Of a DNA stretch of 64,000 nt, positions 15,448 through 36,490 are shown one piece after another; position 1 is the stretch's first letter, and each line of letters begins with the position of its first letter. The position numbers and the translations under genes are program-made. The notes beneath the pieces are model-generated. The model did no database searches. It saw nothing but the letters and a program-made list of their open reading frames with translations, and was not told where the DNA came from. Source of the DNA: Alphaproteobacteria bacterium (lineage in GTDB: Bacteria > Pseudomonadota > Alphaproteobacteria > MPNO01 > UBA830); NCBI GenBank assembly GCA_965243135.1, contig OZ251539.1, positions 5,376,001 through 5,440,000 of the forward strand, read 5' to 3'.

Positions 15448-17357
15448 TCGCGCGCTCCGCGCAGGCTCCGGGCGGCGCGGCGGCCGGAAAGCTGATAGGC
15501 GGACATGCCGACCGCGAGAATCGCGCCGGCGGCGTAGGCGTGGTAACGCAGATCCGCTTCGATGCCCGTCGCGGCGGAAACCAGAGGTCCCGCCGGCAAC
15601 AGCAGGCAGGCCGCCGCCGCCGCCCAGATCGGGCGTTCGCAAGGCGTCCTGCGGCCGAGGCCGGAGCCTTCGAGAAACCTGGCCCATGCGACGACGCCGA
15701 GAAAGCAGGCCGCGACGGTGACGGCGACGTCGAGGGGCGTGCCGTCGAGCAGCAGCGGCGTGTAGACGAACAGGAACGGCATGACGAGGATCATCGACGC
15801 GAGTTTCAGAGCCTGGTTGCCCGTCCTGACCGGATCGCCTCCCGAGATCGCGCTCGCCGCGTAGGCGGCGAGCGCCACGGGCGGCGTGACGGCGCTGACC
15901 ACCGCCACCCAGTAGCTGATCATGTGGGCGGCGAGGGTCGGAACCCCCAGTTCGGTCAGGGCGCCGACGGCGAAGATCGCGAGGATCACGTAGCTCGCGA
16001 CGATCGGAAGCCCCATGCCGACGACGTAGCCGGCGACGATCACCCAGAAGATCGTGACCGGCAGCATTTCTCCGCTGGCCGCGACGAGCAGGTGCGAAAT
16101 CCGGCCCGGCAGATCGCTCTGCGTGGCGGCCGACAACAGGATGCCGAGCACGCCGGCGATGCAGCTGACCACGAGGGTGTTGCGCGCTCCGGCTTCGAGG
16201 GAAATCCAGACGGTTCGCCCGAGTTCGGCGAAGGCGTCCCCCAGGCCTCGCGCGGCGCGGGCCTCCTCGCCGACCGCGACGGCGCCCGGAGACGGCGCCC
16301 GGGCCGCGCTCCGCTCTCCGGCGGGTCCGAGCAGCGCGATCTCGCCGATCTTGAGGACGATGAAGGCGAACAACGCCCAATAGGCGGCGTCGTCCGCCCC
16401 GACGCCGATATGGTCGTCGACGAACCAGGTGAAGGGCGGGCCGATCCGCAGGCCGAAGAAATAGACGAGGAGGCCCGCCGCGGCCGATATCGCGAGATAG
16501 GGCTTCCACGAGGTCCGCGAACGCCGCGTCGGGATCGACGCCAGCAGATCGGTCAGCTTCAGCATGACGATCAGGACGATCGTCTTCGCCGCGGCGAGGA
16601 ACGCGGAGTCCCCGGTGACCAGGAGGTAGATCATCGCCGGGATCGGCGTCAGCAGATGGAGGCGGGTCAGAATGTCGCGCCACGGCGGCAATTCGTCCGC
16701 GGACACGCCGTGAAGCCTGTCTTGCCGCGCCCGGAAATACACGATCAGGCCGACGGAAAAGTAGTAGAGAAGAGCGGGAATCGCGGCGATCTTGACGATC
16801 TCGAAGTAGCTCGTCTCCGTCAGCTCGGCCAGCAGGAACGCGCCGGCCCCCATGATCGGCGGCATGTACGCGCCGCCGGTCGAGGCCGCCGCCTCGACTC
16901 CGCCGGCGAATTCCGGCCGGTAGCCCACGCGCTTCATGAGCGGGATCGTGAACGTGCCCGTCGTCATCACGTTCGCCACGCCGCTTCCCGAAATCATGCC
17001 GAAGAAGCCGCTGCTGATGACCGCCGCGAGCCCGGGACCTCCCGTTCGCCGGCCGGTGATCCTGTAGGCCGTGTCGATTATCAGCGCGCCGAGGCCCGTC
17101 TTCTCGAGGAATGCGCCGAGGATCACGAAGATCACGATGAACGTCGCGAACACTTCGGCGATGAGCCCGAGCATGCCCTCGGTCGACAGCATGAGGAACT
17201 CCATGACGCGGGCGGCGCGGTTGCCGGGGTGGTTGAGGACCCCGGGCATGGCCTGGGCGACGACGTCGAAGGAGTAGACGAAGAAAAGGAAGCCGAGCAG
17301 CGGGATGAGCGGCCCGACGATTCGCCGGGCGATCTCGAAACTGACCGCCGCCATCAT
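15444..17357 (-). pseudogene. fused TRAP permease (4TM/12TM), apparently lacking its N-terminal helices
   Basis: GMISGSGVANVMTTG, EAAASTGG..MPPIMGAGAF, VTPPVALAAYAA. Homology appears to begin at EIARR, which is normally well inside the protein. Confidence 0.75.
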
Positions 17358-17483
17358 CACAATGTGATGCGAGCAGTCGTGCAAGCCGGCAACTGTCCCC
17401 CCAGCCAGCGTTCACGCCATGATCAATAGGAGGGGGCAGAGAAGGGACCGTAGCCCGGAAAAGGCCGTTCGTCAACAGACACG

Positions 17484-17514
17484 AAGAAAAAGGGGCCGGT
17501 GATCCCCGACCCCT
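17484..17514 (-). terminator. intrinsic terminator
   Basis: Minus strand AGGGGTCGG-GGATCA-CCGGCCCCT followed by TTTTCTT. Confidence 0.7.
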
Positions 17515-17603
17515 GATTCGTCTTCGCGAAAACCCGCGCCCCACTGCTGGGACTGCGAACCTCGCAAAACATCGAGTTTCCTCGACAGCATCGCCAAAAG
17601 CTG
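17484..17603 (-). ncRNA. candidate counter-transcribed RNA (ctRNA-like) upstream of repC
   Basis: Bounded by a minus-strand sigma70-like promoter and an intrinsic terminator; lies where repABC ctRNAs are found. Confidence 0.55.
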
Positions 17604-17609
17604 TCGGAG

Positions 17610-17638
17610 AGATTACAGGGATGGTTTGCGCCCGTCAA
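17610..17638 (-). promoter_or_regulatory. sigma70-like promoter antisense to repC
   Basis: Minus strand TTGACG-N17-TAATCT. Confidence 0.65.
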
Positions 17639-17710
17639 CCGGAATTTTCGGCGGGCCGGAATTTTTTCGCGAAGGGCCGCAAGCCTTTCACCGGGTCGGC
17701 TATTGCGACC

Positions 17711-19078
17711 ATGGATCTCCAGACTTCGGGCAGCGGCGCCTGCCCGGCGGGCGGAAGGCCCCGCCGCGAAATTCACTATCGGGCCGAATCGGCAGCCGCC
17801 GCGTTCATCGGCCTGCCGGAAGGCGACGACCGGTTCGCCGTCGTCCGGTTGCTCAGGGAAGTCGGGCGCGAAGCCGGCTGGACCGGCCGGCTGATCGAGC
17901 ATCTCGAATTGCTGATCGGCTTCACGCGGCCCCAGGACTGGTTCTGCGGACACCGTCCGATCGTTTATCTCCAGGTCCAGTCGGCGGCGGAACGGCTGGG
18001 CCTTTCCGCCTCCCAGATACAGCGCAACGAGAGGCGGCTGATGCAGTTGGGCGCGGTCTCGTTCCGCGACTCCGGCAACTTCCGGCGCTACGGCAAGCGC
18101 GATGGCGACGGTCGGCTCGTGGAGGCGTGGGGGCTCGACCTGTCGCCCTGCGCCGCCCTTCTGCCGCGACTCAAGCAGCTGGCGAAAGAGGCCGCCGCCG
18201 AACGGGAGGAATTCATGCGGCTCAAGCGCCGGATTTCCGCCGCGCGGCGGCGCATCGGGGCGGCCGTCGATTGCGCCGTCGCCGATTCGAAACTGACGGA
18301 GGAGGCGGCCGCCGCGGCTCGCGTCGAGCTGGACCGGCTGACGCCGCGAATCCGGGCGCGGACGCCGCTCGAAGCGTTGCGGCGGCAAGAGGACGGTCTG
18401 GACCGTCTCGACGCGCAACTGGCGGTTGCGATCGGAGCGAAAGAGCCGACCGCGCCGACGCCCGGCGCGCCGCCGGCGCCGGTCGAACGGCCCGAAGATC
18501 TGCTTTCGGGAGCCGCGGAAATGCGGGCCGCGGCCGCCGCAAATGCGGCCCAGGGACCGCATCGATGCGGCACGCAAGAATATTACAATACAAACCAAGA
18601 ATGTACGAATAAAAATATTACCGTAGCCGGGGGCCGCCCGGAAAGAGGAGCGGACCGCGCCGCCGCCGCGCCCGGAGAGCGCGCGGCTGCGGGAGCTTCC
18701 GGCGGCGCGCGGACCGTCTCTTTTACGCTGCTTCTCGACCTGCTCTCCGAAGAATTCTTCGGGTATCTGCCGCCCGGCCGTCGGGTGGGCTGGAGCGAGC
18801 TGATCTCCGCCGCGGGCCTCGTCGCCGCCGATCTCGGGATTTCGCTCCACGCATGGCGCGAAGCCTGTTACCGCCTGGGGAGGCAGACCGCCGCGACCGC
18901 CGTCGTCGTCATCGCCGCCAAGAAGGCGCGGGGCCTGATCGGTTCGCCGGGGGGCTACCTGCGCGGGATCACGCGGCGCGGCCTCGAGGGCGAACTCTAT
19001 CTCGAACGGAGCGTTTTCGGCCTGGCCAAGGGAGAGGACGGCTATCTCGTCCAGGGGCCCGAGGCCCGGTCGGCGTAG
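17711..19078 (+). CDS. repC: plasmid replication initiator RepC (repABC type), no repA/repB nearby
   Basis: QDW...RPIVY, LGAVSFRDSGNFRRYG, AWGLDLSP, LGISLHAWREAC..LG, IGSPGGYLRG. Confidence 0.88.
   Translation: MDLQTSGSGACPAGGRPRREIHYRAESAAAAFIGLPEGDDRFAVVRLLREVGREAGWTGRLIEHLELLIGFTRPQDWFCGHRPIVYLQVQSAAERLGLSASQIQRNERRLMQLGAVSFRDSGNFRRYGKRDGDGRLVEAWGLDLSPCAALLPRLKQLAKEAAAEREEFMRLKRRISAARRRIGAAVDCAVADSKLTEEAAAAARVELDRLTPRIRARTPLEALRRQEDGLDRLDAQLAVAIGAKEPTAPTPGAPPAPVERPEDLLSGAAEMRAAAAANAAQGPHRCGTQEYYNTNQECTNKNITVAGGRPERGADRAAAAPGERAAAGASGGARTVSFTLLLDLLSEEFFGYLPPGRRVGWSELISAAGLVAADLGISLHAWREACYRLGRQTAATAVVVIAAKKARGLIGSPGGYLRGITRRGLEGELYLERSVFGLAKGEDGYLVQGPEARSA
18576..18622. other. AT-rich patch inside repC, candidate oriV
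   Basis: AAGAATATTACAATACAAACCAAGAATGTACGAATAAAAATATTA in very GC-rich DNA; repABC origins are known to lie within repC. Confidence 0.55.
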
Positions 19079-19098
19079 GGAGAACGGAGGAGGAGAAC

Positions 19099-19545
19099 AT
19101 GACGGTCCATCGAAAGGGCACGGGACCCCCGGTCTCGTTCTTGTCGTCGAACGCCCCGCGCGGCGGACGGCTCCGCCCGGTCGGAAGCTCCCGGCGCGGT
19201 CCGACGACCGGGAAGCGGCGCCCGTCGCGAGACGAAGGCGCTCGCCGGGAGCGCCGCCCTCCGGACGGCGGCCTTGAACGACGCGCGGCGCCGTGCCGCG
19301 GCGAGCGGCGCCGGACTGCCGAAAGCGTCCGCGCCGCCGGCCCGGAGATCTTTGACGAGGCGAAACCGCGCTCGGCAGGCGGATTCTTTAGGAACCGTCT
19401 GGCGCGGTTTCGGCGGGCGCGGCGCGCGGCGGAAGAACCCGAACGCACGGTGTTACGCGCCGGGCCGTCTGTCGCCATGAACATGGCGACGTGTATGCAG
19501 GGAACGTGCGCAAACGAGCGCGCAGAAGAAGGGAGAAAGTCATGA
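19099..19545 (+). CDS. basic hypothetical protein (148 aa)
   Basis: Strong RBS GGAGGAGGAG; stop overlaps the recombinase ATG (ATGA). Confidence 0.5.
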   Translation: MTVHRKGTGPPVSFLSSNAPRGGRLRPVGSSRRGPTTGKRRPSRDEGARRERRPPDGGLERRAAPCRGERRRTAESVRAAGPEIFDEAKPRSAGGFFRNRLARFRRARRAAEEPERTVLRAGPSVAMNMATCMQGTCANERAEEGRKS

Positions 19546-21068
19546 AGGTTTCAAAACGCGTCGCGATCTACGCGCGTTTCAGTTCGTCGCTCCAGAATCC
19601 GAAGTCGATCGAAGACCAGATCGCCCTGTGCGAGCGGCGAATCCGGGAAACGGGCGGCACGGTCGTGGCCACGTTCAAGGACGCCGGGATGTCCGGCGCC
19701 AGCATGCATCTGCGGAAGGGGCTGATCGACCTGCTGACCGCGGTGGAAGAGGGGACGATCGACATGGTTTGGGCGGAGGCCCTCGATCGCCTGAGCCGCG
19801 ATCAGGCGGACATGGTCCAGATCTACCGGCTCCTGCAATTTCACGACGTGGAACTGTGCACGCACGAGGAGGGCGAGGTTTCGGATCTCCATGTCAGCCT
19901 CAAGGGCGTGATCAACGAGACCTTCCGGACGTCGCTCTCCCAAAAGGTGCGGCGCGGCAAGCTGGGCGCCGCGACGCGCGGCCGGGTGCCGGGCCGCAAC
20001 TGCTACGGCTACCGGGTTTTGCCCCGCCTTCCGGGCGAACCCGGCGGGAAACAGGAAATCGTGCCCGAACAAGCGGAGACCGTCCGTCGCATATTCCGCT
20101 TGTACGTCGGCGGAACGGCGCCAAACGAGATCGCCCGGATCCTCAACGAGGAGGGCATTCCGGGTCCGATGGGCAGGGAATGGAGCGAAAGGGGCATCTC
20201 GGGTTGGAGGAAGCGCGGGAGCGGCATCCTGCGCAACAAGCTGTACGCCGGAATTCTGGTGTACGGCCGGACCCGCCGGTTTTCGGACCCCAGGGCGGGG
20301 CAAACCCGACCGCGTTTCGTGCCGGAATCCGAGTGGTCGGTTCGGGAAGTGCCGCATATGCGGATCGTGGACGACGAGCTCTGGCAGCAGGCGCAATTGC
20401 GGGGCTGCGCAGGTTCCGACCGGTCCCGGAGCGGCGGAAAACGCGTTCCGCATCCTCTGACGGGAGTGCTCTCCTGCGCGGTTTGCGGGGGCATCCTCAG
20501 AGTTCGGAACGGCAGAGGCTACACCTGCAAGAGGCAGGACGACAGGCGGGGTTGCGACAACAGGATGCGCATCGACGTCAGGCGGACGGAAGACCGGGCG
20601 CTCCGCGAACTGATCCGGTGGGTGGAATCGTGGCGCGAGGGTTCCGCGCTGCTCGCCTCCGGAATTCGGGAATACGAGCGAAGAAGGGACCGCCTCGAGA
20701 CGAAGATCGTAGACGGGAAGGAGAAGATAGCGCTGCTGGTCGAGAGCATCGAGCGGGGAGGAAAGGAGCCGCGGGCGGTCGCGCGGCGCATCGGCGATCT
20801 GGAGCGGTCGGTCGCCGCCCTGACGATCGAATTGAAGTCCATGCGCCGTCCGGAAGAACGCTCGGCGGCGGACCTGCTTGGGACGCTGAAGTCCGCGCTC
20901 GAGGGGCTCGCCGCCGCCGCCGCTGACGACGACACCCGGCGGGACGCGTTGCTGAAGTTCCGGGACCTGGTCGAGCGAATCGACATCTCGCCGACGGCCG
21001 AAAAGGGAGAGTTCGAGATGACGGTGCGCCCGCGCGTCGACGCGCTTGTCGCGCTGGTTCTCGAATGA
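19542..21068 (+). CDS. large serine recombinase/integrase
   Basis: AIYARFSS catalytic Ser, LDRLSRD, recombinase domain (YGY...GILRNKLYAG), zinc ribbon CAVC, coiled coil. Confidence 0.93.
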   Translation: MKVSKRVAIYARFSSSLQNPKSIEDQIALCERRIRETGGTVVATFKDAGMSGASMHLRKGLIDLLTAVEEGTIDMVWAEALDRLSRDQADMVQIYRLLQFHDVELCTHEEGEVSDLHVSLKGVINETFRTSLSQKVRRGKLGAATRGRVPGRNCYGYRVLPRLPGEPGGKQEIVPEQAETVRRIFRLYVGGTAPNEIARILNEEGIPGPMGREWSERGISGWRKRGSGILRNKLYAGILVYGRTRRFSDPRAGQTRPRFVPESEWSVREVPHMRIVDDELWQQAQLRGCAGSDRSRSGGKRVPHPLTGVLSCAVCGGILRVRNGRGYTCKRQDDRRGCDNRMRIDVRRTEDRALRELIRWVESWREGSALLASGIREYERRRDRLETKIVDGKEKIALLVESIERGGKEPRAVARRIGDLERSVAALTIELKSMRRPEERSAADLLGTLKSALEGLAAAAADDDTRRDALLKFRDLVERIDISPTAEKGEFEMTVRPRVDALVALVLE

Positions 21069-21113
21069 CCGCAGGCCGCCGGAAGCCGAGAGGCTTCCGG
21101 CGGCCTGCCCGCT

Positions 21114-21752
21114 TCAGTCGGCCCGCGCCAATTCGTCGAGCAGCGCGGCGCTCGCGCGGCGCAGGAGTTCCAGCGCGAGTTCCGGCGGCGGCGGCCGTTC
21201 GATCCACTGGATTTCGCAAAGGAGGTAGCCGGGGCCGGCCAGCCAGGCGATGCCCCTCGAATCGTCGATCTCGTCGTCGTCGACCGCGACGCCGTCCGGG
21301 TCGCAACCGACGATCCGGCAAACGAATTGCGGGCTGCCCATATGGACGAGGTATTCCCGCCGGTCGTCCTCCCCGTGCGCGAACAGCCACTCGTCCGGCG
21401 GTCTCCGCGTTTCCGGCTCGCCGGTTCCGTCCGCGATGCGGCAGACCAGCGCCGGCGTCGCCAGGTGAACGACATAGTTCCGCCACTTGCCGGAGGCGTC
21501 CTTCGGGCCGCGCGCGTACAGCCAGTCGTCGCGCCGGAATTCCGGCACGGGCGCGGTGCGGAGGCGGTAGAACTCTTCGAAGCGGGCCCGGTATTCGGGC
21601 GGGATCGGGCAGACGCCGCCCGCCCAGCCGCGGGCGTCGGCGAGAGGAATGGAGAAGGATTCGGCGACCGCCCCGACGGCATCGAGCGACGGGCCGCAAG
21701 CGACGACCGCGAACGCGCGGAATCGGGCGGATGTCCAGTGTCTGTCGTTCAC
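21114..21752 (-). CDS. hypothetical protein: HTH-like N-terminus plus a tandemly duplicated small domain
   Basis: Internal repeat DDWLYARG..RNYVVHLATPALVCRI / DEWLFAHG..REYLVHMGSPQFVCRI; start codon uncertain. Confidence 0.6.
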   Translation of the reverse strand: MNDRHWTSARFRAFAVVACGPSLDAVGAVAESFSIPLADARGWAGGVCPIPPEYRARFEEFYRLRTAPVPEFRRDDWLYARGPKDASGKWRNYVVHLATPALVCRIADGTGEPETRRPPDEWLFAHGEDDRREYLVHMGSPQFVCRIVGCDPDGVAVDDDEIDDSRGIAWLAGPGYLLCEIQWIERPPPPELALELLRRASAALLDELARAD

Positions 21753-22016
21753 GGCAGGTCTGCGCCCCCATGCCGGGAAGTGCTGCTCGACTTCCGGCGG
21801 GGAGCCCCTCGGACCGACGGCGGCTCCGCGCCCGGAAGCGCACGGCGCCGAATGATGGTAGGTTGCGGCGGAATGGTCAAACGGGTTTTTTTCGGACGGG
21901 GCGTTCGCCTTGACTCGCCGGCCGACCCGTCGATAGGGGGGCGTTTCCAAACGTTCTTGCGTGGAAAAGTAAAGGAGAATGACAGATGGGCAGGGCATTC
22001 GTGGTCAAGGCTGTGC

Positions 22017-22941
22017 ATGACGGTTTTCCTGTCGAAGGCGTACCAGCTCGCGGCGGGACATGCGCGCATCGGGTGGTCCAGTCTGGACAGCCAGGATCTG
22101 CGCGTCGTTCAGCGGAATCTGGAGCAGGGACATGGCCTCGACGACGATCAGGAAGACGCGAAGAGGTGTCGCGGTTTCCTCACCGAAGTGGGCGCAGGCG
22201 ATCTTCTCCTTTATCCGCATCAGCCGGCGAGAGATCAGTTCACGGTCGTGCGGGTGACCGGCGACTACGGTTACGATAGCGGATTGGAGAAAGACTTTCG
22301 GTCGTTTCGGCCGTGCGAGCTCGTCACTCCGAAACCGGTGTCGCGGTACGATGAAATCGTCCCTTCCTCGCTGCGTCACCGAATGGTGCGTCCAGGCCGT
22401 TTTTCCGAGGTAAGCGATACCGGTCCGTTGCGGGACTGCCTCGATCGCCTGTCGAAATCTGGACGTGACCAAGACGGTACGAACAGTGCAGCTCTCACAC
22501 GCATCCACGAGAAATTGAGAGAATCGCTTCCCGGTCAGCAAGAGTTCAGCAGAACCGACCTTTCGCGCAAGTTTTGCGCGGAACTGTCGCATGGGGTATT
22601 TCTGCGAACTGCAGGAAGGGCCTGCCGAGGCGGGTTCGGACATCGTCCTCACCGTCGGTGACCGTTTCCTGCCTGATAACGTCAACTTCAGGGTTGGCGT
22701 GCAGATTTTTTCCTACAAGGACTCGGTCGACGAACACGCGCTTAAAGAGAAGTTGGAACAACTTCTGCAAGGCTGGAAACGGAACGATTACGGAGCGCTT
22801 CTGACGACGGGCCGTTGCGACGAGGAGGCGGTGGCGATGCTTCGTCGTCACAATACGGACGATCGCCAACGACCGGTCAGGTTGATCGACGGCGACGAGC
22901 TTGCCGTTCTGCAGCATTTCCCGCCAGGGGGCGGGACCTGA
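22017..22941 (+). pseudogene. Mrr-like restriction endonuclease, frameshifted near 22590
   Basis: N-terminal RIGW...GDLLLYP...VTGDYGY region; C-terminal MGY...EAGSDIV...VGVQI...LLTTG...VRLIDGDELA. Confidence 0.65.
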
Positions 22942-23432
22942 CGGACGGCGCAACCGCGGCCTCCGGGTTCGCCAACGCGGGAAAGACAACTGCGCCAGCC
23001 GACGGGTCGGCGTGCGCTACGACAGGTTTTCCGCGTGGTTCCGGAAAGGCGGATCGCCGGTTCGGAACGCAGCACCGTTCGCCAGGCGGCGCCTGCCGGA
23101 CATGCCGGCCGTGCGACGGCGCATCGCGCCGTCCTCTTCGCCAACTTCCACGCCGTTCGTCTCGACAATGGCCGTCGTCGATAATGCCGGAGGGCCGGTC
23201 GTTCAAGCATCCTGTCGCGCACTCGTGACGGCGGACGGTTTCAGGCGATCCGCGCCGGCAATTCCTCTCGCTGCCGCGGGTTGTTGCCCAGGCAAGCGGT
23301 CGAAAGGTAAAACGGCGAAGCGCTTTGTCTGGCCGGGCGACGCCCGCCATTGCCGGAGGCTCCCCGGGCATCCCCCGGTCGGCCGCCGGAGACGGGGCAG
23401 GCGGCGTTCGCGCGTTGTGGAAGCAGCTGGTT

Positions 23433-25166
23433 ATGGAGACAGTACGGACCGGGCGCAGCCCAAGCGCCCTCGGGGAACAACTGGCGCCGGTGCTGTTGCG
23501 AATGCGGCGGGCGCGGGTCGAACCCGTGTGCCAGGTGACGATGTCGGTTCCAACCGACGATGTCTATGCAACGTTCGGCGCGACGCGGACCGAGGCGCTG
23601 CGGTGGATGCAGGAACGAGCGGGCCGACGGTTGCCGGCCGAGGCGTGGGACGGCGGCAGTTTCGATCTGGCCGATATCGGGGCGCCGCGGACGGAGGCGA
23701 CGTTCCTCGAAGAAATCGGCTACTGGGCGGGGCGGGTGGACGCCGTCGACGCGACCGCGCCGGAACGTTCCAGAGATACCGTCGGATTCAAGTCCATAAT
23801 CTAAATATTTGTGGACGCCGTCGACGCGACCGCGCCGGAACGTTCCTGGACCACCGAAACCGCGGTCGCGAAGGTCGCCGGGACGATCAGGTTCGGCGCG
23901 CGCCTCACCTGCGTCGTCCGCGGGGAAAGCGAGCCGTTCGTTCCGTCGGTTCCCGGGCCCGTGAAGCAGGTCGTCGACGGATGCGGCGGCGTTCTCGACG
24001 GCCGGTCGATCGGCGGGGGGCCCTGGCTCGTCGATACGCCGGAAAAGGCGTCTCGGCTCGTCGAGTTTATGTCCAGTCCCGAGCGCCAATGCGACGTTCT
24101 CGCTATTTCGACTCGGGGTTCGAGCGACGATCCCGACGCCACCCTGATTCAGGCCCGATCCGTGTTCGAGCGGACGATCGGAGCCGCCCATGTCGTCGTC
24201 CTCACGGCGACGGGCACCTACGCCCTGACCGAGCTGGTCGGAAAGGAGCTGTCGGTCTTCCGGCAGGCCGTCCGGACGTACAGGCCTGGTTTCGATCCGG
24301 AAGGCGCGGCGCCTCGCGAACATCCGTTGGCGCTCGGCATGCGCATAGCGGACTGGCCGGGGGGACCGTCCGGTTTCGAGGATTTCCTCGTGGCCAGCTG
24401 CCTGCGCGGCACCGTCGACCGGCCCGATCGCGAACGCCTGCTGCCGTCCTATGTCGCGGTCAAGCAGGCCGCGCAGAAGTTGCGCAAGAAAACCGCGGCC
24501 GCCGGTTCGATAACGGACTCCGAGCGCGTGGCGGTGCTGGAAAACGAAGAGCTCAGGAGGGACAACCAGGATTACGAAGCCCTGCTCGAGATCGCCGAAG
24601 AGGAGCTGAGCCAGGTTCGGGACGAGCGCGACGCCGCGAGAGGCGAAATCTGGCGCCTCAAGAACCGGGTCGAATATCTGGAGCGGCAGGACATCCGGGG
24701 CCCGGTTGCCAAAGACGAAATACCGGACGCTTTCGACGATCTGGAACGATGGGCGGCGCAGCATCTGGCCGGGAAGGTGACGCTTACCGGCCGCGCGATA
24801 CGGGCCGCGAAGGATTCGCCGTTCGAGGATGCGCGTCTCGCTTATCGCGCGCTCCTCATCCTGCGGGACCGCTACGTTCCCATGCGCCGGGAGGGCGGTC
24901 TCGATCTGAAGGAGGCGTACCGAAAGGCGCTGGAGAAGGAAGCGCTTCAGGAGCAGCCGACGTTCGCGGGAACGAGATCCGGGGAGCACGGAGACGTTTA
25001 TTTCGTCAGGCACGGGGGGAGAAGGCGGGAACTCGACCTGCACCTGAAAGGAAGCGACTCCCGGGATCCACGTTTCGGCTTTCGCCTGTACTTTTTCTGG
25101 GACAACGAGAACGAGGAGGTCGTCGTGGGTTCGTTACCGAACCACCTCAAGACGAGAATCACCTGA
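23433..25166 (+). pseudogene. hypothetical coiled-coil protein, interrupted by a 75-bp duplication/insert containing a stop
   Basis: ORFs 23325-23804 and 23811-25166 are in the same frame; removing 75 bp gives a 552-aa ORF. A decayed paralogue lies at 35238-35831. Confidence 0.75.
23736..23846. repeat. 36-bp perfect direct repeat flanking a 39-bp AT-rich insert (repeat-spacer-repeat)
   Basis: GTGGACGCCGTCGACGCGACCGCGCCGGAACGTTCC at 23736-23771 and 23811-23846; insert AGAGATACCGTCGGATTCAAGTCCATAATCTAAATATTT. Confidence 0.95.
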
Positions 25167-25550
25167 ACGGCGACTGGCCGGGCGTCCCGGAGGTCGGCTG
25201 AACTGCCGGCGACATCGGCTTGCGGTCTGTTTCGACCTCTTGCGCCCGGAGAGCCGGGCGGCGGAGGGATCGGCCGTTCCTTCGACGAGCGCTACGGAAA
25301 ATGTCTGGACTTTCATGCGGCTTCGCGGAAGCCAATTCCTTGCAGGAACTTTCGGGATCCGCCGGAAAGTCGGAATGCTTGCCTGCCCATCCCGCCGCCA
25401 AGGGCGAACGCATTCGAGGAAGCGGAGGTCCGAATCGTGGCGGCGGGCGGCCGAAAAAATGATCGTTCACGACTTCGTTTCAGCCAATGGCGCGGCGGGA
25501 TCTCCACGAGACGATCCGGTACGATGGCGCACGCGGGGGGCGGTCGTCCG

Positions 25551-25990
25551 ATGAAGATTTTCCTTGTTCTTGCGCTCGTTTTGGCAGTGCAAGGCGGATC
25601 GGCAGCGGCCCAGACATTCGAGGAATCCGAAGCGGCCTATAACCGCGGCGATTACACCACGGCTTTACAAGGCTTTCGACGGCTTGCCGAACAGGGAAAC
25701 GCTGGCGCTCAGTACAACCTCGGGGTTATGTACGCCCGCGGCGAGGGCGTTCCGAAGGGTGCCGCAGAGGCGGCGAAGTGGCACCGCCGCGCCGCCGAGC
25801 AGGGGGAAGCCGAAGCTCAGGCCATCCTCGGGGTGATGTACTCCCAAGGCACGAGCGTCCCGCAGGACGACACGGAAGCTGCGAAGTGGTATCGCCGGGC
25901 CGCCGAGCAGGGACACGCCGGAGCTCAGCACCTCCTCGCGGGCATGTACTACCAAGGCACGGACGCTCCGAAAGATGACGCCGAGGCGGC
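25551..25990 (+). pseudogene. secreted Sel1-like repeat protein, 3' truncated
   Basis: Signal peptide MKIFLVLALVLAVQGGSAAA and three AEQG.A.AQ..L..MY..G..VP repeats, then runs into an IS end. Confidence 0.85.
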
Positions 25991-35237: not shown

Positions 35238-35831
35238 TCAACGGATGTGTAAGGCTCCGCGCCGACCGAACCCGGTCTGCACGTCCGGACGGCTTGCCGG
35301 CAGAGCGACAGCTCCGTTCCGAGCGGTCAGAGAAAAGGCTTCCGCCGTCCGCTCGAACACGCACCCGGCCCGATTCAAGGTGGCGTCGGGATCGCCGCTC
35401 GAATCCCGCGTCGAAATGGCGAGAACATGGCGCTCGAAGCCGGACATCAGTTCAACGAGCGCCTTCTCCGGCCAATCCACGGGCGCTTCGCCGATCCGCC
35501 AGCCGTCGAGATTCCCGCGGTATTTGTCGAAGATCTGTTTCACAAACCCGGAAACCGCTGGAACGAACGCCGCGGCGTCGCCGCGGACCACGCAGGTAAC
35601 GTGTGCGCTGAACCGGGCCATCGACCTTCGCCACCGCAGTTTCGGTGATCCCGCTTCTGTGAAGTCATGTCGGCCGCGTCCTGCTGTGCCGCTCAACGGC
35701 CGATTTCTTCGAGGAACGCCGCCTCGATCCGCGGCGGCCCCATTGCCGGCCGGATTGAAACTGCCGCTGTCCCACGCCTCGGTCGGCAACTGTCGACTCG
35801 CACGATCCTGCCGCAGTGCCTCGATCCACAC
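35238..35831 (-). pseudogene. decayed paralogue of the 23433-25166 gene
   Basis: RQLPTEAWDSGSF, TCVVRGD..FVP.V.G.VKQ and VLAISTRDSSGDPDATL align with the 23.4-kb gene. Confidence 0.8.
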
Positions 35832-35861
35832 CTGCCGACCGCCATATGGCCGCTAGAACCG

Positions 35862-36490
35862 TCATCGCCGCTTGACGCACATGCTCGACCCGCCCTCGCC
35901 GACCATCTCGCGAAGCGCCTGGAAAGTCGACATGGTGCCTTCCTCGGCGACGGAGAAGGCCGAGTAGACCTCGCTGGTGGCGTCGTCCATTGTGAGGATC
36001 CCACTGCCGACTGGGCGCCCACTCGTGGCGCGAGCCGTCCTGATGCAGCACCATGCCGGGTAGCGCACGCGCGGGCGCTTGCGCCGGTGAGCAGCGCGGT
36101 CCGCGTGGGCCGTGGGCCTGCAAGGTCAGCCGGACCCAGTTGTAGCTGCGCTGGACGCCACGGCAGGCGACCAGCTTCTCGTGAAAGTGCTTGGCGTTGA
36201 AGTCCCGAGTGTCGAACAACTCCAGAATCTGCACCACCTCCCCCGCGCCGGCGCGCCGAGATCCAGCCCGGGCGACGATCGTACAACCCTTCCGCGCCCT
36301 CCGCCTCGTCGCGCCAACGCCGGAAGGTGCGTTCCGAAACGCCCTCCTCCGCCTCGCCATGGCTCAACACCACAGGTGCGACACCTCTTCGAACTTCCTC
36401 AGTCCCTGCCACTGTTCGCCGCAGCCACCCCCTTGGTTTGGAAGCGTTCTAAGAGGGTACATGGACCGGACATATCGTCTGTTGCTGACA
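35862..36490 (-). mobile_element. ISNCY/IS481-like transposase remnant
   Basis: VSERTFRRWR, PGMVLHQDGSRHEW, MDDATSEVY...EEGTMSTF; TGT-starting end at 36490. Confidence 0.7.

Follow-up and report, generated by a model that had tools for sequence, protein, structure and literature searches.

A probable off-target spacer integration by a resident Cas1–Cas2 in a HEC-07-type gene of an alphaproteobacterium

Introduction

Natural off-target integration by Cas1–Cas2, in which a spacer is inserted outside the CRISPR arrays, is a known kind of event, and we describe here a probable case within a HEC-07-type candidate defence gene of an alphaproteobacterium. The gene lies in a 64,000-nt stretch of the forward strand of contig OZ251539.1 (assembly GCA_965243135.1, genome positions 5,376,001–5,440,000), hereafter called the window, and the insertion is designated T1. 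As described in bioRxiv 10.1101/148544 and PMC7054753, Nivala et al. (Nat Microbiol 2018) found that over-produced Cas1–Cas2 of the Escherichia coli type I-E system integrated off target and spawned new arrays, the evidence from two other species being circumstantial. The laboratory record of off-target integration is solid; going by the available part of the preprint (bioRxiv 10.1101/148544), the natural record was thin and circumstantial.

Integration into non-CRISPR sites that share some repeat features has been described in vitro for Cas1–Cas2 of Pyrococcus furiosus (available part of PMC6698737), and the type III-A Cas1–Cas2 of Thermotoga profunda is promiscuous in vitro unless HU is added (available part of PMC13769266). 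For type II-A, the available part of PMC6895254 ties repeat elements to the proper repeat length. Like the neo-CRISPR loci of E. coli, as far as the accessible text of the preprint describes them, T1 is a repeat-spacer-repeat formed from ordinary genomic sequence, in which a repeat-length target is duplicated on both sides of a spacer-length insert, away from any array. The literature searched yielded no report of off-target integration in nature that was ascribed to a type III-linked module, which is not proof that there is none in print.

Results

Structure of T1

A 36-bp stretch of coding sequence, GTGGACGCCGTCGACGCGACCGCGCCGGAACGTTCC, is present twice in T1 around a 39-nt insert, the two copies lying 75 nt apart from start to start. 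The parts, in window positions, are:

23736–23771, no strand assigned: neo-repeat copy 1 (36-bp target), 100% identical to copy 2
23772–23810, no strand assigned: spacer-like insert of 39 nt, unique in the genome, with an in-frame TAA
23811–23846, no strand assigned: neo-repeat copy 2 (36-bp target), 100% identical to copy 1

The duplicated unit is exactly 36 nt, as the bases preceding the two copies differ (G and T) and so do those following them (A and T), and the recurrence of an exact 36-mer at this spacing is far beyond chance. It starts with GT, and the palindromes CGTCGACG and GGAACGTTCC both lie within it. In the 6.1-Mb genome there are three copies of the 36-mer, namely the two of T1 and one at genome position 351,995. 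The insert is single-copy; it shares no word longer than 13 nt with the remaining genome, and its terminal inverted repeat is 1 nt only, i.e. none to speak of. Its G + C content is 33%, compared with 66% for the gene and 65% for the genome. It places an in-frame TAA at 23802–23804, where the upstream frame terminates with APERSRDTVGFKSII, and the GTG that opens copy 2 restarts a frame of 451 aa. The exact 36-bp duplication around an AT-rich insert, its in-frame TAA, the GT start and the palindromes had all been claimed in the original prediction for this locus, and the letters bear out each of them.

The same prediction held that no cas genes lie in the window. A Cas1 search of the window found none, so the statement stands for Cas1, the other cas families not having been searched for there. 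A promoter and terminator scan of 23200–24300 gave nothing notable and no sigma-70-like promoter. T1 has two repeat copies only and no leader, and falls short of a functional array, which has several repeats, a leader and a transcript that is processed into CRISPR RNA.

The interrupted gene and its empty site

The segment that carries T1 has a second copy in the genome, in which the same gene is uninterrupted. The features concerned are:

23325–23804, plus strand: 5′ fragment of the split HEC-07-type gene (open reading frame, the longest frame being 159 aa and the true start uncertain), aligning N-terminally to the intact paralogue and to five homologues
23811–25166, plus strand: 3′ fragment of the split gene, a 451-aa frame from the GTG of copy 2 (open reading frame and protein alignment)
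17355–25984, plus strand: 8.6-kb duplicated segment (BLAST), whose other copy at genome 345,610–354,171 has the empty site

BLAST aligned the two copies of the segment as two collinear pieces, 96% and 91% identical, that break at 23771 and 23811. Both pieces take in the 36 bp that stand once in the other copy (genome 351,995–352,030), which has no insert, and the gene there, at genome 352 kb, encodes an uninterrupted protein of about 555–588 aa. In a protein alignment, the 12 residues encoded by the T1 unit (VDAVDATAPERS) occur once in the paralogue and in each of the five aligned homologues, and in the window gene they close the first fragment and open the second. The single 36 bp in paralogue and homologues thus indicates that 75 bp were added to a formerly continuous gene, i.e. 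36 bp of target and 39 nt of new sequence.

The intact paralogue matches the PADLOC model HEC-07 (E 6.8e-169), a candidate defence gene, and a Pfam search assigned no family to it. It has 131 homologues of about 520–590 aa, nearly all of them unnamed. Among the 40 relatives searched the gene was not found, with two short weak matches only, and the paralogue is therefore the sole empty site for T1. More diverged paralogues lie elsewhere in the genome, including a decayed one in the window for which the original prediction had reported no duplication; the present alignment agrees:

35269–35901, minus strand: decayed paralogue of the HEC-07-type gene without insertion, in three pieces 73–87% identical (genome 5,411,269–5,411,901)

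Two sister events

Scanned for exact direct repeats of 22–45 bp with a gap of 25–50 nt, the genome gave 41 candidates outside arrays, and a mismatch-tolerant scan gave 37. Most of these were coding or simple tandem repeats, and two, designated T2 and T3, share the geometry of T1.

T2 (genome 3,444,841–3,444,953) comprises a 37-bp duplication and a 39-nt insert with 38% G + C. It sits in the terminal codons of a conserved aldolase-like gene, in a region present in all 20 relatives, and alters the final four residues of the protein from RDEA to ELSA. All four relatives aligned at this site lack the 76 bp and have the 37 bp once. The T2 insert had no exact matches in the collections searched. Two Staphylococcus phages have a large terminase gene with weak similarity to it (85% over 34 nt, E 0.04), which we treat only as a lead to a phage origin and not as evidence.

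T3 (genome 2,242,318–2,242,426) comprises a 37-bp duplication and a 35-nt GC-rich insert, with limits that are uncertain by 1 nt (left) and 3 nt (right), and lies in frame within a P-loop gene of 1457 aa. Its empty site is at genome 2,964,789–2,964,824, in a 91%-identical paralogue (2,964,267–2,965,339), and its insert is an exact copy, at 35 of 35 positions, of genome 565,156–565,190. The inserts of T1, T2 and T3 are mutually unrelated and have no terminal inverted repeats. Three independent events of 36–37 bp plus 35–39 nt, one of them holding a spacer-sized chromosomal copy, are as expected of a fixed-ruler integrase and hard to ascribe to a transposon. Searching the genome for similar singletons, a check proposed along with the original prediction, had thus yielded T2 and T3, both with empty sites, in addition to about eleven loci of I-E type that are described below.

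Resident CRISPR systems and the match in dimensions

Cas1 is encoded at three genome loci, 60–115 kb upstream of the window. The systems of the host are:

Type II-C, with Cas9 (TIGR01865, E 2e-177): 115 repeats of 36 nt and 114 spacers of 27–31 nt, 108 of them 30 nt
Type III-B, array at genome 5,284,180–5,287,867: 48 identical 37-nt repeats ending ATTGAAAC and 47 spacers of 37–44 nt, seven of them 39 nt
Type I-E, assigned from its repeat and period, only Cas1 of its cas genes having been scanned: 78 repeats of 28 nt and 77 spacers of 33–34 nt

The III-B locus, about 112 kb upstream of T1, encodes Cas1, Cas2, Cmr2/Cas10, Cmr3, Cmr4, Cmr6/Cmr1 and a CARF protein. Its Cas1 matches TIGR00287, the general Cas1 model, over positions 1–326 of 327 (E 4e-72), and its Cas2 matches PF09827 (E 7e-21). 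The repeat has 48 copies in this genome and none in 20 relatives with up to three mismatches allowed. The period of the array is 74–81, and both the T1 period of 75 and the 39-nt insert fall inside the array ranges. The II-C array fits the duplication length of T1 (36) and not its insert length, and the I-E array fits neither. Host arrays of compatible lengths, as the original prediction would have them, are thus found in the III-B locus with its Cas1 and Cas2 (37-nt repeats, 37–44-nt spacers), the repeat being 37 nt rather than 36.

T1 and the reverse complement of T2 start with GTNGA, compared with GTCGA in the III-B repeat, for which the chance is 0.01 per site. The likeness of the T1 target to the II-C and III-B repeats was also considered and was not significant, and one 10-mer common to the T1 insert and one III-B spacer was taken as chance.

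Some further observations concern the arrays themselves. I-E spacer 35 of 77 has an exact match, at 33 of 33 positions, at genome 4,133,743–4,133,775, and may be self-targeting or have a prophage as its target. A 719-aa frame with an ISAs1-family transposase domain (genome 5,288,287–5,290,446, minus strand) lies directly downstream of the III-B array. At the trailer end of the II-C array, near genome 5,272,600–5,272,800, two adjacent units have the same spacer, and a degenerate last repeat follows the array.

Junctions in public runs and search for a donor

Eleven public runs, several of them sponge metagenomes and none of them an RNA run, cover parts of the window, and their contigs rather than raw reads were compared with it. 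In run X7, the 60-nt contigs at 23742–23801 and 23781–23840 carry both junctions without mismatch at depths of 38.6 and 39.4; the predicted structure therefore withstood the comparison at both junctions, at the level of contigs and not of raw reads. Flank contigs in X7 have depths of 56–57, and the single-copy genome depth was estimated at about 39. A mixed population was considered as the source of this gap and rejected: each flank contig has, over about half of its length, the same sequence as the paralogue, so that a depth of about 58 is predicted, which fits 56.

The breaks between the X7 contigs fall exactly at words that lie entirely within the insert. In one contig the match extends to 23810 and is followed by 255 non-matching letters; 30 of these have a G + C content of 13/30 and include a short hairpin. 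Together with the bin depths, the contig breaks hint that the 39 nt are present in a second, rare molecule in X7, at a depth of roughly 2–5 compared with 39. Such a molecule would resemble a protospacer donor.

Contigs of runs X1 and X5 that skip exactly 75 bp were considered as an empty T1 site and rejected, as they are the counterpart of the 352-kb paralogue; all 15 differences of the X1 contig are alleles of this paralogue, and the contigs of both runs are therefore uninformative on polymorphism of the T1 site. Run X11, considered as support from a second study, gave too little, with one contig of depth 4.5 and mosaic alleles that ends 8 nt into the insert.

The origin of the T1 insert was sought in phage, plasmid, genome and metagenome collections, in line with the original prediction. 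Nothing was found there, an outcome that is neutral for the prediction, and with no donor for the insert there is no protospacer adjacent motif to be read.

I-E-type loci outside the arrays

About eleven further loci hold 2–12 copies of a 28–29-bp unit, 32–33 nt apart, with a distinct GC-rich unit at each locus:

Genome 385672, 973349, 1912721 (= 1922849), 2208563, 2510624, 2545732, 2742314, 2992257, 4477871, 5621020 and perhaps 5753138: I-E-type loci with 28 + 33 geometry

These non-canonical units are identical to the I-E repeat at 14–17 of 28 positions, 10 of the 11 reaching 15–17, and random genome windows gave a mean of 11.7 and a 99th percentile of 16. Ten of the 15 I-E-type spacers tested have a match elsewhere in the genome (up to three mismatches in 31 nt), five of them exact over 33 nt, and BLAST reproduced the exact ones. 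Among canonical spacers, self matches were found for none of the 114 of II-C, none of the 47 of III-B and one of the 77 of I-E (1/238 in total). The ectopic units presumably tolerate self-derived spacers because no working CRISPR RNA is made from them. At three I-E-type loci, the sequences of relatives do not cover the insertion sites. The scattered 28 + 33 units look like off-target integrations of the I-E system, and these loci show that off-target integration occurs in this cell line, whose genome holds an unusual wealth of such events.

In the 12-repeat ectopic array, the same AT-rich spacer (about 36% G + C in the 28-nt repeat register) is present at genome 2,742,680 and 2,742,802, which points to an internal duplication after integration. 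A two-repeat unit at genome 4,812,991–4,813,080 has a repeat identical to that of I-E at 25 of 28 positions and a spacer that matches genome 3,258,360 at 29 of 31, and may be a decayed orphan mini-array rather than an off-target seed.

Neighbouring genes

Other genes of the duplicated segment and its surroundings are:

19491–21068, plus strand: large serine recombinase inside the duplicated segment (Pfam Resolvase, Recombinase and Zn_ribbon_recom)
22591–22941: Mrr-type nuclease domain within the duplicated segment
26184–26825, plus strand: trypsin-like peptidase domain protein of 213 aa, with weak PADLOC matches to the RT-protease, HamA and LmuA models

The peptidase lies just downstream together with a Sel1-repeat protein. 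With the peptidase, the Mrr-type nuclease and HEC-07, the duplicated segment looks like a small island of defence genes.

Discussion

T1 is probably the result of ectopic (off-target) spacer integration by a Cas1–Cas2 of the host itself, and its dimensions alone single out the III-B module as the most likely source of the enzyme. In the sequence of steps that we propose, the integrase would have held a prespacer of about 39 bp derived from AT-rich foreign DNA. It would have attacked the HEC-07-type gene instead of the 37-bp leader-proximal repeat, joining the two 3′ ends of the prespacer to opposite strands at positions 36 bp apart. Host repair would then have filled the two single-stranded gaps, duplicating the 36-bp target and leaving a repeat-spacer-repeat, in which the TAA of the insert would split the gene into a 5′ fragment and the 451-aa 3′ frame. 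The staggered attack, the foreign donor and the loss of gene function are what we infer from the structure; this loss is probably cushioned by the uninterrupted paralogue at genome 352 kb. The original interpretation of T1 as a neo-CRISPR seed gains support from the empty site, from a resident Cas1–Cas2 and array that fit, and from the sister events.

Several results weigh against this reading. The T1 duplication is 36 bp and the III-B repeat 37 nt, i.e. one short, and the T1 target is identical to the repeat at 16 of 36 positions (p about 0.11 against random genome windows); the T2 target has a score of 13 (p 0.7). The GTNGA motif was picked after the data had been viewed, and T3 does not have it. 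The period of T3 is 72, 2 nt under the minimum of 74 in the III-B array. The inserts of T1 (33% G + C) and T2 (38%) lie below all 47 III-B spacers, whose minimum is 40%. The T1 insert had no exact match in viral contigs, metagenome contigs or genome contigs, BLAST against phages gave matches of at most 20 nt (E about 7), and BLAST against plasmids gave nothing. Finally, the X7 junction contigs have 30 letters per side, one under the 31-letter rule for bridging, and X7, as the best-covering run, may be the assembly's own sample. As regards the length of the duplication, a one-base error at a site without repeat elements would fit the link between these elements and repeat length made in the available part of PMC6895254.

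A non-CRISPR origin appears improbable, be it the footprint of an unknown transposon or integrase that duplicates a very long target, or the repair of two nicks 36 bp apart in which filler DNA was captured. The enzyme in our proposal is deduced, the target has no significant likeness to the repeat, and the two AT-rich inserts fall outside the G + C range of the array spacers, all of which would suit such an origin. However, the duplications (36, 37 and 37 bp) and the inserts (39, 39 and 35 nt) cluster on the dimensions of one resident array, the T3 insert is a precise spacer-sized copy of chromosomal sequence, and the same genome has a parallel class of events with I-E dimensions. The known target duplications of insertion sequences and casposons are far shorter than 36 bp. 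The three inserts differ from one another and have neither inverted ends nor further copies, so that they are not the ends of one element; the T1 insert in particular, lacking a terminal inverted repeat and being single-copy, is not the end of an insertion sequence or of a miniature inverted-repeat transposable element. Such an end had been named at the outset as a finding that would overturn the prediction; with no inverted ends, a single copy and a duplication of 36 bp, it was not what we found.

That one of the other resident modules, II-C or I-E, rather than III-B made T1 seems slightly more doubtful still. A duplication of 36 bp is exactly the II-C repeat length, and the I-E module is clearly behind many off-target events in this genome. 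Against this, all 114 II-C spacers are 27–31 nt and all 77 I-E spacers 33–34 nt, compared with inserts of 39, 39 and 35 nt here; T2 and T3 duplicate 37 bp, the repeat length of III-B; and the I-E-type events are all 28–29 bp plus 32–33 nt. An assembly or sequencing artefact (a chimeric read, an adapter or a polishing error) is hardly credible: there is a single assembly and the best-covering run may be its sample, but the independently built X7 contigs carry both junctions at the full single-copy depth of about 39, two more events of the same geometry have empty sites in relatives or paralogues, and no match of the T1 insert to phage or plasmid records exceeds 20 nt.

Off-target integration by the host's Cas1–Cas2, probably that of III-B, would make T1 a clean natural case, with an internal control in the empty-site paralogue and with two sister events. 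By its dimensions it is attributable to an integrase linked to III-B, and little is known of the rules by which this class selects targets. It would also illustrate a cost of adaptation, in that a candidate defence gene appears to have been inactivated by insertion. T1, T2 and T3 and the about eleven I-E-type events form a natural data set on the targets that two integrases of one cell prefer. The proportion of self-derived spacers, 11/18 in ectopic units versus 1/238 in canonical arrays, shows the strength of the selection that purges self-targeting from working arrays.

A broader proposition, to which we give an even chance, is that this strain is a natural hot spot of array birth. The III-B-linked and I-E modules would have seeded about 14 ectopic loci, of which one would have grown to 12 repeats and most would hold self-derived spacers that no working array could tolerate; T1 would be a recent seed that disabled one of the copies of a rival defence gene, its foreign donor still circulating in the same host-associated community. 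In that case, array birth, the cost of off-target adaptation and the target features read by each integrase could be measured in a single genome.

Among known systems, the host's own III-B array is comparable in dimensions: the period and insert length of T1 are within its range, and both units start GT.GA; T1 differs from it in having two copies of an unrelated 36-nt repeat, no leader and a distance of 112 kb from the cas genes. Insertion sequences, miniature inverted-repeat elements and casposons likewise have a direct duplication flanking an insert, but the insert of T1 is 39 nt, single-copy and without inverted ends. The reactions of P. furiosus and T. profunda, as presented in the available parts of those reports, took place in the test tube on plasmids, whereas T1 is a fixed chromosomal event with its gaps repaired and is linked to a different subtype. 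Compared with the neo-CRISPR loci of E. coli, again within what the accessible preprint text covers, T1 is natural, has III-B-like dimensions and an AT-rich insert read as foreign, and lies in a genome with two sister events and about eleven events of I-E type.

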